Shown here piece by piece: positions 1 to 40,762 of a stretch of DNA of 57,892 nt. The notes below the pieces were generated by a model, which was not told the DNA's origin, searched no databases, and worked only from the letters and a program-made list of their open reading frames with translations. The translations under genes and the position numbers were made by a program. Location of the stretch: positions 1-57,892 of the forward strand of contig JALHPI010000002.1 of NCBI GenBank assembly GCA_022842585.1, given 5' to 3'. This stretch comes from Minisyncoccota bacterium (GTDB taxonomy: Bacteria; Patescibacteriota; Minisyncoccia; Phycocordibacterales; Phycocordibacteraceae). Numbering within the stretch: the first letter of the stretch is position 1; each line of letters opens with the position of its first letter.

Positions 1-813
1 ATCATAGAAATAATTGGGCCGGAGTCTTCCGGAAAGACCACACTCGCACTCCACGCGATTGCAGAAGCGCAGAAGAAAGGCGGCGTGTGCGCGTTCGTGG
101 ATGCCGAGCATGCACTTGACCCTGAATATGCGCGCAAAATCGGTGTGAGGCTCCAGGAGCTTCTCATCTCCCAGCCGGACACGGGAGAACAAGCACTTGA
201 AATCGTGGAATCTTTGGTGCGCTCGAATTCAGTTGATATCGTCGTCGTCGACTCGGTAGCTGCCCTTACCCCGAAAGACGAAATCGAGGGAGACATGGGC
301 TCCGCCCAGATGGGAAAGCAGGCGCGCCTCATGTCTCAGGCACTTCGCAAACTCACCGCTATCACCGCAAAATCGAAGACCATCATCATCTTCATCAACC
401 AAATCCGCATGCAGATAGGCGTGATGTTCGGAAACCCTGAGACCACGACCGGCGGAAAAGCGCTCAAGTTCTATACCTCGGTACGTCTTGATATCCGACG
501 AATCGCCCAGATAAAGAAAGGTGAAGAAATCGTGGGCGGCCGCGTACGCGTGAAGGTGGTAAAGAACAAAGTCGCCGCCCCATTCAAAACGACGGAGTTC
601 GACCTTCTCTACAATGAGGGCATCAGCCGCGAGGGCGAACTCTTAGCACTTGGCGAGAAGTACGACATCATCCAGAAGTCGGGCTCCTCGTATAAGTTCG
701 GAGAAATTGCGCTTGGTCGTGGGTACGACGCATCCCGTACGTTCCTTAGAGAGAACAAGCCTGTCGCAAACGACGTGCTGAAGCTTATAAAGGAGAAACT
801 TGCGGAACAATAA
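1..813 (+). CDS. recA: Recombinase RecA (5' end cut by window edge)
   Basis: Frame 1 is open from base 1 ([28 protein letters not shown]; Walker A GPESSGKT). ORF track 85..813 is the downstream part. Canonical RecA core. Confidence 0.97.
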
Positions 814-6049: not shown

Positions 6050-7072
6050 TTACGCCTTTTGGCGCTTCTGCAGATCGTTCACGAATTCTTGCACGCAGGC
6101 GGCAATGGGTACCGAAAGAAGCACGCCGAGCATCCCTGCAAGCTGTCCGCCCGCAATAAGGGCAATGATGACGAGGATAGGTGGTACACCGACAATCTTC
6201 TTCACTACAAGCGGATAAATAAGGTGCGCCTGGAACTGGTTCACTATCAAGTAGAGCCCTGAGACAATTGCGACAAGCGTGAGGTCACCGGTCGTAAGCG
6301 CTACTGCGATACCCGGAACGGCTGCGGCAACTGAGCCGAATACCGGAATGAGCTCCATAATGCCCGCAAAGATGGCGAGCAAGAGTGCGTACGGAACGCC
6401 AAGCAGCGAAAGACCGAGATAGAGGAGCACGGTAATGATGAGCGATAGCAGAAGCTGACCCTGCATCCAGAGCCCTATTTTCTTTTGCGAACGCTTCCAG
6501 AGCCCGAGTACGTACTCACGGTGTTGTGCAGGTGTTACCAACCGAAGGAAGTCATCCACGCCCGTTTCCTGAAGGGAGAAGTAGATGGATACGACGATAG
6601 TAAGTACGAAGTAAAATACCCCACCGAAAATGGAGGAGAGGAACTTCAGCACGCCTGCGCCCGTGTTTGCAAACGCGTTCTGGAGCGAGAGGACGGTATC
6701 GGTAAGCGACGGGCCAAGCGAAGCACCCTGGAGAAACGGTAACGAACTCAGGCTACTTACCTGACTTACATACTGAGGAATGACCGCAAGAACGGCGATT
6801 GCTTCCGCGAGCATCGGTGGGACAAAAAACCACACCAACGCGATAAGACAGGCAAGGACTGAGGCATAGACGGAGACGACCGCAAGCGGCCGCGGAAACT
6901 TGTGCTTCATGAAGAACTCAACGCCCGGCTCAGCCGCCGAAGCAATCACAATTGCCGAAAGGAGGAGGAGGACAAGCGTGGAAAGCTGCCAGAGCGCCCA
7001 GACAGCAGCCGCGACGACGACGATGCGAAGGAGGGCTCCGAAGGAGACGGTTATAGTATGCTTTTGCTCCAT
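6050..7072 (-). CDS. AI-2E/PerM (UPF0118) family membrane transporter
   Basis: 340 aa, multi-TM, typical ELIPVFGS and LLSVP motifs. Confidence 0.85.
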   Translation of the reverse strand: MEQKHTITVSFGALLRIVVVAAAVWALWQLSTLVLLLLSAIVIASAAEPGVEFFMKHKFPRPLAVVSVYASVLACLIALVWFFVPPMLAEAIAVLAVIPQYVSQVSSLSSLPFLQGASLGPSLTDTVLSLQNAFANTGAGVLKFLSSIFGGVFYFVLTIVVSIYFSLQETGVDDFLRLVTPAQHREYVLGLWKRSQKKIGLWMQGQLLLSLIITVLLYLGLSLLGVPYALLLAIFAGIMELIPVFGSVAAAVPGIAVALTTGDLTLVAIVSGLYLIVNQFQAHLIYPLVVKKIVGVPPILVIIALIAGGQLAGMLGVLLSVPIAACVQEFVNDLQKRQKA

Positions 7073-29323: not shown

Positions 29324-29454
29324 TGGTGCCCAGGAGGGCTCGACCAAGAACATTTCTGCTCGCCGTCGCTCACAGAAATTTCTCGGCCCTGCTCACGCTA
29401 CCGGTTCTGCTGAACCGCTCTACGCGCCCGCTTTCGAGTCCTCTCCTGGTGCCA
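29324..29454 (-). repeat. Family C tRNA-linked structured element (tRNA-Leu(GAG) copy, divergent)
   Basis: Minus strand: TGGCACCAGGAGAGGACTCGAA (17 nt = reverse complement of the tRNA T-loop/T-stem/acceptor), AGCGGGCGCG, GAGCGG-TTC-AGCA-GAA-CCGGTAGCGTG, variable hairpin, then TCGAGCCCTCCTGGGCACCA. Confidence 0.7.
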
Positions 29455-29490: not shown

Positions 29491-29500
29491 TTTTTATGTG

Positions 29501-29582
29501 TGCCCAGGAGAGGACTCGAACCTCCACGCCTTTCGGCACTACCACCTCAAGGTAGCTTGTATACCAATTTCAACACCTGGGC
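29501..29582 (-). tRNA. tRNA-Leu(GAG), no encoded CCA
   Basis: Acceptor GCCCAGG/CCTGGGC, anticodon loop TTGAGGT, long variable arm, T-arm GGAGG-TTCGAGT-CCTCT. Confidence 0.9.
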
Positions 29583-33023: not shown

Positions 33024-33096
33024 GGGCGCTTAGCTCAGTTGGTAGAGCATCCCGTTTACACCGGGCAGGTCAGAGGTTCGAGTCCTCTAGCGCCCA
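33024..33096 (+). tRNA. tRNA-Val(TAC), no encoded CCA
   Basis: Acceptor GGGCGCT/AGCGCCC, D-arm GCTC-AGTTGGTA-GAGC, anticodon loop TTTACAC, T-arm AGAGG-TTCGAGT-CCTCT. Confidence 0.9.
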
Positions 33097-33103
33097 CAAA
33101 GAC

Positions 33104-33136: not shown

Positions 33137-33263
33137 TGGGCGCTAAGCAAAGCGTGGGGCGCTTTGCGTGAGCTGCGGAGCAGAAAAGTCGCAGGCGGGT
33201 AGCCGAGACGGGGTCGCAGAATTTTCCAGCAAGAAAATATCTGTGACCGGGCCCTAGCGCCCA
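33137..33263 (+). repeat. Family C tRNA-linked structured element (tRNA-Val copy)
   Basis: TGGGCGCTA (reverse complement of the acceptor 3' strand) ... GAGACGGGG, GGTCGCAGA-ATTTTCC-AGCA-AGAAAAT-A-TCTGTGACC ... CTAGCGCCCA (direct copy). Confidence 0.8.
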
Positions 33264-38746: not shown

Positions 38747-39235
38747 GTGGAAAAGTACAAAAGGAACCCTAACGCCAGATGTTTCGTTTGTAAGAAACCA
38801 ACCTATTGTCGCCCTGCACAGATAAAAGAGAATGGGGGTCGGGTTTTTTGTAGTTCCCGCTGTTACGGAATATCAATCAGAAAAGAGCATCCTTGCGTCG
38901 TATGCAGCAAGCCTATTTTAGCGAGTGCGAATAAAAAAACATGTAGCAGGAGCTGCGCTAACACTCATCGTGCAGGTAATCTTTATAAAACTGGAGCACG
39001 CAAAGATAAAGTTCAGTACCAGAGAGGGCTAAAGATGCGTTTATTGGAAGCTCGGGAACCAGTATGCGAACGATGCGGGTACGATAAATACGAAATCATT
39101 AACGTCCACCATAAAGACCGAAATCGACAGCATAACGATTTTGAAAACCTCGAGTTACTTTGCCCAAATTGCCATGCGGAGGAGCATTACCTTGAAGGTA
39201 ATTGGTACAGTGGTAGGATAGGAAAAAGTACATAA
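38747..39235 (+). CDS. HNH endonuclease with N-terminal CxxC zinc-ribbon repeats (AT-rich), paralog of 28479..28973
   Basis: 162 aa, CFVCKK...FCSSRC, CVVCSK...CSRSC, HNH core INVHHKDRNRQHNDFENLELLCPNCH. Ends 4 nt before tRNA-Ser. Confidence 0.85.
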   Translation: MEKYKRNPNARCFVCKKPTYCRPAQIKENGGRVFCSSRCYGISIRKEHPCVVCSKPILASANKKTCSRSCANTHRAGNLYKTGARKDKVQYQRGLKMRLLEAREPVCERCGYDKYEIINVHHKDRNRQHNDFENLELLCPNCHAEEHYLEGNWYSGRIGKST

Positions 39236-39239
39236 AAAC

Positions 39240-39325
39240 GGAGGCGTGGCAGAGTTGGTCTATCGCACTTGTCTTGAAAACAAGAGTTCCGCAAGGGACC
39301 GTGAGTTCGAATCTCACCGCCTCCG
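39240..39325 (+). tRNA. tRNA-Ser(TGA)
   Basis: Acceptor GGAGGCG/CGCCTCC, anticodon loop CTTGAAA, long variable arm, T-arm GTGAG-TTCGAAT-CTCAC, discriminator G. Confidence 0.9.
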
Positions 39326-39370
39326 CTAAAAGTTTGAAGTTCTTGTATTTGTTGGTGCTATTATATTCGT

Positions 39371-39960: not shown

Positions 39961-40035
39961 GCTCTCGTCGTTCAATGGATAGGACGCTAGCTTGCGGAGC
40001 TGGTAATATAGGTTCGATTCCTATCGAGAGCACCA
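39961..40035 (+). tRNA. tRNA-Arg(GCG), CCA encoded
   Basis: Acceptor GCTCTCG/CGAGAGC, anticodon loop TTGCGGA, T-arm ATAGG-TTCGATT-CCTAT, ACCA. Confidence 0.88.
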
Positions 40036-40040
40036 AAGAC

Positions 40041-40076
40041 AGAAACACTCGCCCAAGGCGAGTGTTCTGCTTTTCT
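40041..40076 (+). terminator. Hairpin + T-run directly after tRNA-Arg(GCG)
   Basis: AGAAACACTCGCC-CAA-GGCGAGTGTTCT followed by GCTTTTCT. Confidence 0.65.
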
Positions 40077-40221
40077 GCTCTCGAGCACGCCTGGGAGGCG
40101 TGCATATAGGAATCGAAAGTCGGAGGCCTGTCGAGGCCGAGACGGGGTCGCGGAATTTTCCAGCAGGAAAATATCCGTGACCGATGCGTGCCTCATTCTT
40201 ATGAGGACACTTCCTATCGAG
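40077..40221 (+). repeat. Family C tRNA-linked structured element (tRNA-Arg(GCG) copy)
   Basis: GCTCTCGA[hairpin]...TAGGAATCGAA = reverse complement of the tRNA 3' end. Core GAGACGGGGTCGCGGAATTTTCCAGCAGGAAAATATCCGTGACCGATGCGTG. Ends in TTCCTATCGAG (direct copy). Confidence 0.85.
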
Positions 40222-40243
40222 GAATTTGGTATTGTAGTCCCAC

Positions 40244-40318
40244 GCTCCCATCGTTCAATGGATAGGACACTTCCCTCCGAAGGAAGAAATGCTGGTTCGA
40301 CTCCAGCTGGAAGCACCA
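40244..40318 (+). tRNA. tRNA-Arg(CCG), CCA encoded
   Basis: Acceptor GCTCCCA/TGGAAGC (one C-A mismatch), anticodon loop CTCCGAA, T-arm GCTGG-TTCGACT-CCAGC, ACCA. Confidence 0.85.
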
Positions 40319-40343
40319 ATGAAAAGGCGAAGCCTTGAATTCG

Positions 40344-40474
40344 GCTTCTGGCTGGAGTCGAAAGCCGGAAGCGCGTCGGCGCTGAGGCGGGGTCGAGGAA
40401 TTTTCCAGCAGGAAAATATCCGTGACCGATGCGTGCCTGCGGTCTTCGCAGGACACCTCCAGCTGGAAGCACCA
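40344..40474 (+). repeat. Family C tRNA-linked structured element (tRNA-Arg(CCG) copy)
   Basis: GCTTCTGGCTGGAGTCGAA (near reverse complement of the tRNA 3' end) ... same core ... CTCCAGCTGGAAGCACCA (exact 18-nt copy including CCA). Confidence 0.85.
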
Positions 40475-40478
40475 ATAA

Positions 40479-40505
40479 GAAAACCGCCCTAACGGGGCGG
40501 TTTTC
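40479..40505. terminator. Bidirectional intrinsic terminator (element C / rpsT convergent)
   Basis: GAAAACCGCCC-TAAC-GGGGCGGTTTTC. Confidence 0.85.
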
Positions 40506-40513
40506 TTGATTCT

Positions 40514-40762
40514 CTACTTTGCAGTTGCTTTCGCTACTGCCTTCGCGAGGCGGGACTTCTTGCGGTCCGCAGTGTTCTTCTTGATGATGCCGCGCTTTGC
40601 CGCCTTGTCGATAGCCTGGTATGCCTTCGAAAGGGACTCCGTGGTCATCTCCTTGCGCGCATCCTTGGTCGCTCCGGAGAGTACTTTCTTGCGGCGCACG
40701 TTGAAAACGTGCTTCTTAAGGGAAGCGCGGTGGGCCTTCTTTGCTGATTTCGTTATTGCCAT
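40514..40762 (-). CDS. rpsT: 30S ribosomal protein S20
   Basis: 82 aa, MAITKSAKKAHRASLKKHVFNVRRK signature. Confidence 0.93.
   Translation of the reverse strand: MAITKSAKKAHRASLKKHVFNVRRKKVLSGATKDARKEMTTESLSKAYQAIDKAAKRGIIKKNTADRKKSRLAKAVAKATAK

Follow-up and report, generated by a model that had tools for sequence, protein, structure and literature searches.

An apparently undescribed family of structured repeats in Patescibacteria, with ends that appear to be copied from neighboring tRNA genes

The 57,892-nt stretch of DNA analyzed here (the window; contig JALHPI010000002.1 of a Minisyncoccota bacterium, phylum Patescibacteria) carries two tandem tRNA-Arg genes, each trailed by a structured element of 130 to 145 nt that contains an inverted and a direct copy of the 3′ end of that tRNA. 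The arrangement had been proposed in an original prediction made from the sequence alone, and it was borne out by the sequence, ARAGORN, and Rfam. We define the element behind tRNA-Arg(GCG) as c1 and the element behind tRNA-Arg(CCG) as c2. Both belong to what is apparently an undescribed and large family in Patescibacteria, in which a central core is conserved as a fold and the closing stem is specific to each copy. All of the evidence is comparative, and the reading that we favor, with about as much confidence as doubt, is a non-autonomous, structure-constrained palindromic repeat family that is selfish or mobile, of the kind represented by the Rickettsia palindromic elements (RPEs).

The core is an apical three-way junction on the copy-specific closing stem. 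One branch, P2, consists of a 3-bp stem in which all four Watson-Crick forms occur at the middle pair, a tandem G.A internal loop, and then a 4- to 5-bp hairpin that varies freely yet stays paired. The other branch, P3, has a lower stem with a conserved G.U pair, a one-base bulge (A) on the 3′ side, and above these an upper stem rich in A/U that is capped by an AGCA loop. Some copies also have a hairpin 5′ of P2, here called Px, whose loop is YGGGA or GGA. A covariance model of the core was built from a trimmed alignment and a hand-written structure, and covariation was measured on 44 distinct sequences aligned to that model. In those sequences 97.4% of pair cells were paired, changes on both sides were found in 18 of 22 pairs, and the covariation score was 0.398, compared to 0.120 for shuffles (0 of 500 reached 0.398) and at most 0.068 for slid controls. 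A model-fitted alignment favors structure, but the margin is large, and a hand parse gives the same covariation. Moreover, one G.U pair of the core was retained in 42 of the 44 sequences, and folds, arm mismatches, and covariation counts all agreed with the earlier proposal that G.U pairs favor the tRNA-sense strand. We conclude that the fold of the tRNA-sense strand is under selection.

The features of the two tRNA-Arg units in the window are given below. P4 is a further hairpin located between the core and the 3′ arm, and MFE stands for minimum free energy.

39961..40035, plus strand: tRNA-Arg(GCG), called by ARAGORN and Rfam; its segment from the T loop to the 3′ end is the source of the c1 arms.
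40044..40066, plus strand: H1, a terminator-like hairpin (ACACTCGCC-CAA-GGCGAGTGT, U-rich tail), from the terminator scan, the sequence, and the MFE fold.
40077..40221, plus strand: element c1, whole, from the sequence, RNAfold, and the covariance model.
40077-40084, plus strand: c1 5′ arm part a, GCTCTCGA, the opening of c1.
40085-40103, plus strand: c1 Px hairpin, GCACGCC-TGGGA-GGCGTGC, with a UGGGA loop.
40106-40117, plus strand: c1 5′ arm part b, ATAGGAATCGAA.
40119..40181, plus strand: c1 core, P2 and P3, covariance model R1, 86.3 bits.
40182-40185, plus strand: c1 T-loop remnant CGAU.
40188-40210, plus strand: c1 P4 hairpin.
40211-40221, plus strand: c1 3′ arm, TTCCTATCGAG, an 11-nt direct copy of tRNA-Arg(GCG).
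40244..40318, plus strand: tRNA-Arg(CCG), called by ARAGORN and Rfam; C4.A69 mismatch in the acceptor.
40329..40348, plus strand: small hairpin GAAGCC-TTGAATTC-GGCTTC between tRNA-Arg(CCG) and c2.
40344..40474, plus strand: element c2, whole, from the sequence, RNAfold, and the covariance model.
40344-40362, plus strand: c2 5′ arm, GCTTCTGGCTGGAGTCGAA.
40364..40426, plus strand: c2 core, P2 and P3, covariance model R1, 80.6 bits.
40427-40430, plus strand: c2 CGAU, T-loop remnant.
40433-40456, plus strand: c2 P4.
40457-40474, plus strand: c2 3′ arm, CTCCAGCTGGAAGCACCA.
40478..40507, both strands: bidirectional intrinsic terminator common to the tRNA/element unit and the convergent rpsT.
40514-40762, minus strand: rpsT (S20), convergent with the tRNA/element unit.

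Within c1, ATAGGAATCGAA is the reverse complement of the T loop and the T-stem 3′ strand of tRNA-Arg(GCG), and H1, flanked on the left by the tRNA 3′ end and on the right by the inverted copy, forms with them a long quasi-palindrome. In c2, RNAfold pairs the two ends as a 14-bp helix with two G.U pairs and leaves ACCA unpaired, just as had been predicted. The terminal copy of c2 is exact and includes the CCA, again as predicted, but its length of 18 nt was an underestimate, as the two bases past CTCCAGCTGGAAGCACCA (AT) match too and the exact direct repeat is 20 nt. The segment GATGCGTG, originally taken for part of the core junction, is instead the T-loop remnant CGAU, where the direct tRNA copy starts, plus P4, because P4 sits inserted right after CGAU in both c1 and c2. 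Compared to shuffled controls, the fold z-scores of c1 and c2 were −6.8 and −6.4, and those of two extra copies were approximately −4. The small hairpin at 40329..40348 overlaps the start of the c2 5′ arm, is listed on the minus strand by the terminator scan, and is absent from the empty site of relatives, in which the native sequence directly 3′ of the tRNA is the terminator at 40478..40507.

Two more copies in the window brought the number to the four that had been expected, one behind a tRNA-Val and one behind a tRNA-Leu, both matched by the covariance model.

33024-33097, plus strand: tRNA-Val(TAC), upstream of c3.
33138..33263, plus strand: element c3, behind tRNA-Val(TAC) and a terminator-like hairpin, 72.7 bits.
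29500-29582, minus strand: tRNA-Leu(GAG), upstream of c4.
29324..29452, minus strand: element c4, behind tRNA-Leu(GAG), 20.8 bits, E value of 0.006.

Element c3 reads, in order, GGGCGCTA, a Px hairpin with a UGGGG loop, the core (33188-33247), and CTAGCGCCCA, with no P4. Element c4 has the 5′ arm GCACCAGGAGAGGACTCGAA, a diverged core (29343-29411), and the 3′ arm CTCCTGGGCACCA, which ends in CCA where the tRNA-Leu gene reads GGGCA-CAC. The core model gave 86, 81, and 73 bits for c1, c2, and c3, respectively (E values of about 1e-14 to 1e-18), and nothing significant in the window beyond c1 to c4.

DNA stretches outside the window that were compared to it were numbered as L loci. The 23-nt P3 apex GAATTTTCCAGCANGAAAATATC was found in 75 stretches from about 60 species-representative genomes, and all of the named ones were Patescibacteria (the candidate phyla radiation, CPR), including Paceibacteria/Parcubacteria groups, Moranbacteria, and some labeled Saccharibacteria. 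The census rests on one exact 23-mer and is thus biased to one core variant; the family is broader than the census, because diverged copies such as c4, L089, and L045 exist. The apex 23-mer (e.g., window 40152-40174) is stop-free in all six reading frames, and in-gene copies use at least two of its sense frames (..EFSSRKI.. and ..IFQQEN..). Two variant elements, L045 (oriented 6104-6188) and L089 (downstream of tRNA-Arg(CCG)), have their hairpin types swapped: the P2 position is taken by a long, A/U-rich hairpin that has the AGCA loop, and the P3 position by one that has a GACG loop. The swap indicates that the family is modular.

No known family matched the element. Rfam 15 was run over the window and 22 loci, both at gathering scores and with E values up to 10, and returned no match on the element, which agrees with the earlier failure to recognize a described RNA class; tRNA, RNase P, and LOOT passed gathering and 5S rRNA fell just below it in the E-value scan, all of them away from the element. 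ARAGORN and Rfam likewise made no tRNA-like call on 40077-40221 or 40344-40474, even with E values up to 10. The LOOT RNA (RF03000, 77.6 bits; L019 5828-5951, plus strand) lies in the same Nomurabacteria locus as a type A copy of the element (see below) but is not adjacent to it. A hammerhead ribozyme was considered on the resemblance by eye of CCGAUGCG to the CUGAUGA box and was rejected, as the invariant positions differ and no ribozyme model matched. A phage or plasmid origin was also set aside: viral contigs had no match to the apex, and phage and plasmid collections had no blastn match to c2. Three stem arms, compared to viral contigs in view of a spacer-like idea, gave no exact match, which is a weak negative. 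Finally, the full-text literature, searched also with the apex sequence itself, gave no description of the element. The negative literature and database results are bounded by the content of the collections searched.

The nature of the tRNA-derived ends was determined by comparison of 25 tRNA-linked copies, which stand behind tRNAs of about 20 anticodons (Arg, Val, Leu, Gly, Glu, Pro, Ile, Phe, and Gln) and all share the orientation of their tRNA. The common layout is the tRNA, a trailer with an H1-type terminator hairpin, the inverted tRNA 3′ copy, the core, and the direct copy. The inverted copy ends in ..GGAnTCGAA, that is, through T54, and is followed by one or two A/G, P2, GGGG, and P3. 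The direct copy begins at C56 (CGAnTCC..) in about 13 copies and stands directly after P3 in eight; in c1, c2, L040, and L025, the P4 hairpin follows CGAU, and in the tRNA-Pro copy of L008 another hairpin lies between P3 and the direct copy. The direct repeats that adjoin the tRNA are 10 to 32 nt, with the inverted copy alongside. In several copies the direct copy runs 2 to 13 nt into the local, non-conserved trailer, such that the repeat including the trailer is 30 nt in L008-Pro, 32 nt in L050-Phe, 21 nt in L020, and 20 nt in c2. Moreover, in L040, where the tRNA has an unusual T loop, TCCGA, the 5′ arm contains TCGGA, and thus this arm is a true inversion. Because the direct copy runs into the local trailer, the ends are DNA-level copies of the neighboring gene. 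We conclude that the tRNA-specific ends are, as judged from sequence, literal DNA duplications and not an independently evolved tRNA mimic.

How much of the tRNA is copied varies. An acceptor plus T-stem helix of 14 to 17 bp with a 3′ ACCA is present in c2, c4, and L040, and the tRNA-like end is partial, truncated, or absent in c1, c3, L005, L008, L074, L030, L061, and L011. Many tRNA-linked copies pair T-stem and T-loop bases only; the copy is truncated in c1, L074, and L092, and there is no tRNA copy at all in L030, L061, and L011. CCA ends were found only in c2, c4, L040, and L010, and in c4, L040, and L010 the CCA is not encoded by the gene (3 of about 16 informative copies). The un-encoded CCA was considered as a mark of retro-copying from mature tRNA and found unconvincing, since that frequency is not clearly above chance where trailers start with CA. 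The pattern of tRNA-specific ends on a conserved core, first seen in the window, holds for about 20 more copies, behind many different tRNAs, and with copy-specific arms and an inverted copy present, the element is, as had been argued, neither a MITE (a miniature transposable element bounded by inverted repeats) with fixed ends nor a simple att duplication.

Close relatives of the window organism differ in whether they carry the elements. In L078, a Logan contig, the S20 protein and tRNA-Arg(GCG) are identical to those of the window, yet there is no c1 and no c2, and tRNA-Arg(CCG) runs straight into the rpsT terminator, constituting an empty site. When aligned to that empty site, the window contains an extra block flanked by a repeat of approximately 25 nt (the last 18 tRNA nucleotides and approximately 7 trailer nucleotides), of which 20 nt are exact and the remainder is read from the alignment. 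The syntenic L092 has c1 with the same right junction (CGAG|GAATTTGG) and lacks c2. Its c1 is a mosaic, with P2 and P4 like those of window c2 and a different P3 that is still paired, and its H1 is an unrelated, perfect 21-bp hairpin. The 5′ arm of the L092 c1 tracks the T stem of its own tRNA (GTAGG), and the 3′ arm keeps CCTAT, which results in a G.U pair. At a third site, L093 has an identical acylphosphatase, a different tRNA-Val allele, and no c3.

The tRNA gene next to c2 differs as well. In L078 and L092, tRNA-Arg(CCG) has U4-A69 where the window has C4.A69, and the T arm is ACAGG/CCTGT compared to GCTGG/CCAGC in the window; positions 8 to 48 are identical. From these sequences, the arrival of c2 seems to have gone along with a replacement of the ends of tRNA-Arg(CCG). 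Because tRNA alleles change too, whole segments of tRNA plus element may be exchanged by homologous recombination, rather than the element being inserted. Short-read contigs end at elements: L076, L077, L079, and L080 stop approximately 70 to 90 nt past rpsT, and the L095 contig ends inside the T arm of a tRNA-Leu. Such breaks are to be expected at repeated palindromic DNA, and they warn that metagenome-assembled genomes (MAGs) of the lineage under-represent the elements.

Copies that resemble those of the window and score at least 60 bits were defined as type A. Of 35 type A hits, 15 lay within 250 nt downstream of a same-strand tRNA, 7 were cut by locus ends (two of these with tRNA tail fragments), and 13 were not downstream of a same-strand tRNA, including two recurrent longer contexts. 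A copy follows almost every tRNA in L008, L045, and L050, and tandem arrays of tRNAs and elements occur in those three loci, the window, L005, and L011. It had been stated in advance that a core found mostly away from tRNAs with invariant termini would speak against the proposal. Half of this holds: many cores do lie elsewhere, yet the termini are not invariant and vary from copy to copy. One of the longer contexts (approximately 200 to 300 nt) recurs in L002, L032, L034, L037, L046, L067, L071, and L073, mostly at contig ends, and the other, of the same size, recurs in L007, L015, L017, and L021. Neither group matches Rfam, and the longer contexts may represent either repeat units of greater size or bigger RNAs of which the module is a part. 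In L070, a type A core (97-157, minus strand) lies antisense between tandem 5S rRNA-like copies (1-68 and 156-258, plus strand) that score just below the Rfam gathering threshold; the tandem order may be genuine or may stem from assembly. In L085, L086/L087, and L090, a segment of approximately 50 nt that is like a tRNA-Arg 3′ half (..GGGGCGAAGGAGGYGATGCNGGTTCGATTCNNGCCGAGGGGA) and has no recognizable 5′ half sits approximately 10 to 60 nt downstream of tRNA-Arg(CCG). The L090 segment is followed by a longer structured region, and the core model matches elsewhere in that locus, at 1509-1570 and 2350-2435.

A sister type, here called type B, combines the common P3 and a P2 variant with a stem of 15 to 33 bp. 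The stem is in many cases perfect, and no two copies share its sequence, even when they come from one genome. The tandem G.A lies approximately 7 bp from the junction. Arm mismatches were 20 G.U versus 5 A.C, and therefore the strand as oriented is the one that folds. Type B copies, which are found in intergenic DNA as well as inside genes, have no tRNA linkage and occur in both orientations relative to neighboring genes. Moreover, type B copies in L018, L022, L051, and L054 lie in frame and stop-free inside four Pfam domains: ABC_tran (ABC-F ATPase), UvrD_C (UvrD-like helicase), DHO_dh (dihydroorotate dehydrogenase, DHODH), and an RlmI-like methyltransferase. The in-gene set consists of these four copies, found by a DNA pattern, and the methyltransferase orthologues; none of c1 to c4 is in a gene. 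The in-gene inserts are in frame and free of stops, and they are therefore translated rather than spliced out; an intron was rejected for all four on the same grounds.

The methyltransferase orthologues (65 to 75% protein identity) have the element at the same position in several cases and an empty position in several others. In the DNA of five filled orthologues, the core is conserved and the distal arms are wholly different, each pair of arms being complementary within its own copy. P3 at this site covaries from AUUUUCC/GGAAAAU to AUUUCCC/GGGAAAU, AUUUUCU/AGAAAAU, and AUUUUUU/AAAAAAU. One orthologue reads the core in another frame (..GIFQQEN.. versus ..EFSSRKI..), and in orthologue L084 an internal shift leaves the overall frame intact. 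Because the arms differ but pair, P3 covaries, and the frame of the core varies, conservation acts on the nucleic acid and not on the peptide, with the stem maintained while its sequence turns over.

No gene was found to travel with the element. Pfam scans of the 20 open reading frames (ORFs) around c1 to c4 (about 31-47 kb) identified no integrase, transposase, or reverse transcriptase; the ORFs were housekeeping genes, including those for S20, RuvA, a Mur ligase, prenyl transferases, pilus assembly proteins, RuvX, and DNA polymerase I, plus one HNH ORF. That small HNH-domain ORF (38747-39235, plus strand) lies directly upstream of a tRNA-Ser (39240-39326) that has no element. When 958 ORFs from 75 loci were clustered all against all, the largest ORF family occurred in only 7 of the 75 loci, and the recurrent families were all housekeeping (ABC ATPase, aminoacyl-tRNA synthetase, RF-1, FtsX, BipA, and aldolase). 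An IntI-type integrase was absent from the Pfam-scanned window ORFs and from the recurrent neighbors; GTTRRRY boxes were not searched for.

We favor a selfish palindromic repeat because the element has no gene of its own, is gained and lost between relatives, appears to take part in segment exchange, and has a sister type inside genes. The core would most likely be read by machinery encoded in trans, either as RNA or as single-stranded DNA. Fold-back or template switching, taking place at the terminator hairpin and at the T-loop palindrome TCGA, might produce the arms, or alternatively an insertion that copies its target might do so, and conversion from arm to arm and from tRNA to arm would keep the three copies matched in a layout of direct, inverted, core, and direct. 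Transcription of the elements together with their tRNAs is likely. A bolder form of the proposal, which we regard as rather doubtful, makes the core a structure-specific mobile or recombination module that rebuilds its closing stem from whatever neighbors its landing site. At tRNA genes the same module would copy the segment from the T loop to the 3′ end once inverted and once direct. In a variant, the copy-specific stems would be programmable specificity determinants rather than passive. If true, the module would represent a new fold-back type of target-copying insertion, and units of tRNA plus element would be exchangeable cassettes.

Several points weigh against the selfish-repeat interpretation. 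Where c2 was gained, its tRNA also has a changed T arm and acceptor, and c3 is accompanied by a different tRNA-Val allele; exchange of whole segments could account for both. No donor/target pair, excision product, or associated enzyme was found. Retention of core and fold at the orthologous methyltransferase site, where the flanking protein is only 65 to 75% identical between species, the near-invariant G.U pair, and the co-orientation of each tRNA-linked copy with its tRNA would fit a useful RNA equally well. The fold-back model is read from the layout alone and by itself leaves the position of the core, exactly between T54 and C56, unexplained. Finally, type B stems were considered as inverted duplicates of nearby sequence, but a third copy of an arm within 500 nt was found in 0 of 29 long-armed copies, and no flanking repeat was seen for type B. 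Therefore, copying of nearby sequence does not explain type B stems, and the stems of types A and B may not have one common origin.

The alternative that we take most seriously, as possible though on balance improbable, is a functional small RNA or module: a three-way junction that binds a protein, with a tRNA-like closure through which RNase P, RNase Z, and the CCA-adding enzyme could excise and complete it as they do a tRNA, and with a long stem that does the same job away from tRNAs, for example as an RNase III substrate. The strong covariation and the strand-specific G.U pairs are what such an RNA would show, and the tandem G.A, bulged A, and AGCA loop resemble protein-binding sites. Moreover, all tRNA-linked copies point the same way as their tRNA, no strong promoter-like site stands upstream of c1, which has a tRNA on either side, the helices of 14 to 17 bp in c2, c4, and L040 end in ACCA, and c4, L040, and L010 have a CCA that is not encoded in their tRNA genes. 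However, conservation does not extend to the tRNA-like end, which is reduced to the T stem and T loop, truncated, or absent in many copies, and the un-encoded CCA, at 3 of about 16, is not clearly above chance. The frequent run of the direct copy into the local trailer is as expected from a DNA duplication, close relatives fare well where c1, c2, or c3 is missing, and the in-gene copies are translated through and not removed. The CCA-ended, tRNA-like small RNA of the original prediction is thus not a family feature, most relatives of the core sit on non-tRNA stems, and the role of an RNase P- or CCA-dependent "tRNA tag" is unproven and does not extend to the family as a whole. A cis-acting switch on tRNA maturation, which we consider improbable, would use the same inverted copy differently: paired with the 3′ part of the tRNA it would block the cloverleaf and 3′ processing, paired with the downstream direct copy it would free the tRNA, and the choice would gate tRNA supply. 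The three-copy layout does offer mutually exclusive helices, the predicted MFE structure of the 550-nt transcript pairs each tRNA from T loop to 3′ end with the inverted copy through H1 and forms no cloverleaves, and most tRNAs carry an element in some genomes. That structure is a thermodynamic prediction only, and co-transcriptional folding would make the tRNA first; in many tRNA-linked copies the inverted copy is short or missing, the core is also found at a distance from any tRNA, and relatives lack elements behind the same tRNAs.

Two further alternatives invoke a recombinase. An attC-like site, folded from a single strand and read by a recombinase, would account for the tandem tRNA-element arrays (in the window, L005, L008, L011, L045, and L050) and for the replacement of whole units as cassettes of tRNA plus element. 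Conserved structure with free arm sequence, one strand that folds well, an extrahelical base, and changes of tRNA allele along with the presence of the element are all in keeping with it. We nevertheless think it hardly probable: among the ORFs scanned, no recombinase was near the elements or recurred at the loci, attC conserves its outer boxes and varies its center, which is the opposite of this element, and the sister type is inside genes rather than at cassette borders. Least probable, and nearly excluded, is the relic of a classical tRNA-targeting integrative element, an attL/attR remnant after deletion of an island, which the original prediction had listed and which is not borne out. A direct repeat of a tRNA 3′ part from the T loop is the classic integrase footprint, but there was no integrase in the scanned ORFs or within about 6 kb, and about 20 different tRNAs carry the same core of approximately 63 nt. 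Moreover, the repeat takes in the local trailer, an inverted copy is present, and the core is a covarying fold that is found at sites remote from tRNAs and within genes as well.

A very large part of bacterial diversity belongs to the Patescibacteria, whose genomes are tiny and which experiments have hardly begun to explore. Repeats that mark tRNA genes, sit inside essential genes, and break assemblies bear on MAG quality and tRNA annotation in this group, and gene calling is affected by inserted peptides such as ..EHEEFSSRKISV.. as well. The family also offers an unusually clean case of a nucleic acid fold that is kept by selection or conversion while the sequence of its stem turns over. Copying of tRNA tails bears on how palindromes are made and kept up in streamlined genomes, on tRNA maturation, and on a protein that would read P2 and P3.

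Like REP/BIME/REPIN, ERIC, and Correia-type repeats and MITEs, the element is a repeated, non-autonomous hairpin of intergenic DNA, often at the 3′ ends of genes, that breaks short-read assemblies. Those repeats are transcribed, and from copy to copy MITEs and palindromic repeats conserve their arms or terminal inverted repeats and have target duplications of small size. In the present family, each copy instead has arms of its own, even among copies of a single genome or of a single orthologous site; it is the core on the loop side that is conserved, and the repeat on the tRNA side, at 11 to 32 nt, is longer than a duplication of 2 to 10 bp and comes with an inverted copy. With attC sites the element shares a conserved fold with largely free sequence, complementarity of the arms within each site, a favored strand, a bulged base, and a location at the 3′ ends of tandem units. 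In attC, the outer R and L boxes are conserved and the center varies, and recombination requires IntI and attI, of which none was seen in the ORFs scanned here or among recurrent neighbors; in the element the center is conserved and the arms vary.

Two comparisons concern the tRNA-derived ends. Like tmRNA, viral tRNA-like structures, mascRNA, and YrlA, the copies c2, c4, and L040 have an acceptor plus T-stem helix with a free ACCA. Unlike them, the element has the core in place of a T loop, no D or anticodon domain, and no match in Rfam or ARAGORN, and its mimicry is a literal copy of its neighbor that is incomplete or absent in many copies. Integrases whose crossover lies in the T loop leave a direct repeat of a tRNA 3′ part, and the element resembles tRNA att sites in having such a repeat from the T loop. 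It differs from them in that no integrase or island was seen in the scanned neighborhoods, many tRNAs are involved, the trailer is included in the repeat, and an inverted copy and a structured core are present.

The closest likeness in behavior is to the RPEs, which to our knowledge have not been described as duplicating tRNA 3′ ends. RPEs are short, hairpin-forming sequences without a gene that occur in intergenic DNA and, with unusual frequency, in frame in housekeeping genes, where they are translated through (PMC10969869). The element is similar in its size of approximately 100 to 150 nt, its multiple copies, its hairpin structure, its lack of a gene of its own, and its occurrence in a symbiont lineage with reduced genomes, and in-frame, translated insertions in housekeeping genes are seen here for copies of the sister type. 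RPE families, however, are conserved in sequence along the element and in the encoded peptide, whereas here only the apical core is conserved, the stem differs in each copy, and one orthologue reads the core in another frame. The phyla are unrelated, and the likeness is one of behavior, as sequence homology is unlikely across phyla. If the parallel is true, the family would represent a second origin of selfish DNA within protein-coding genes, again in symbionts with reduced genomes.

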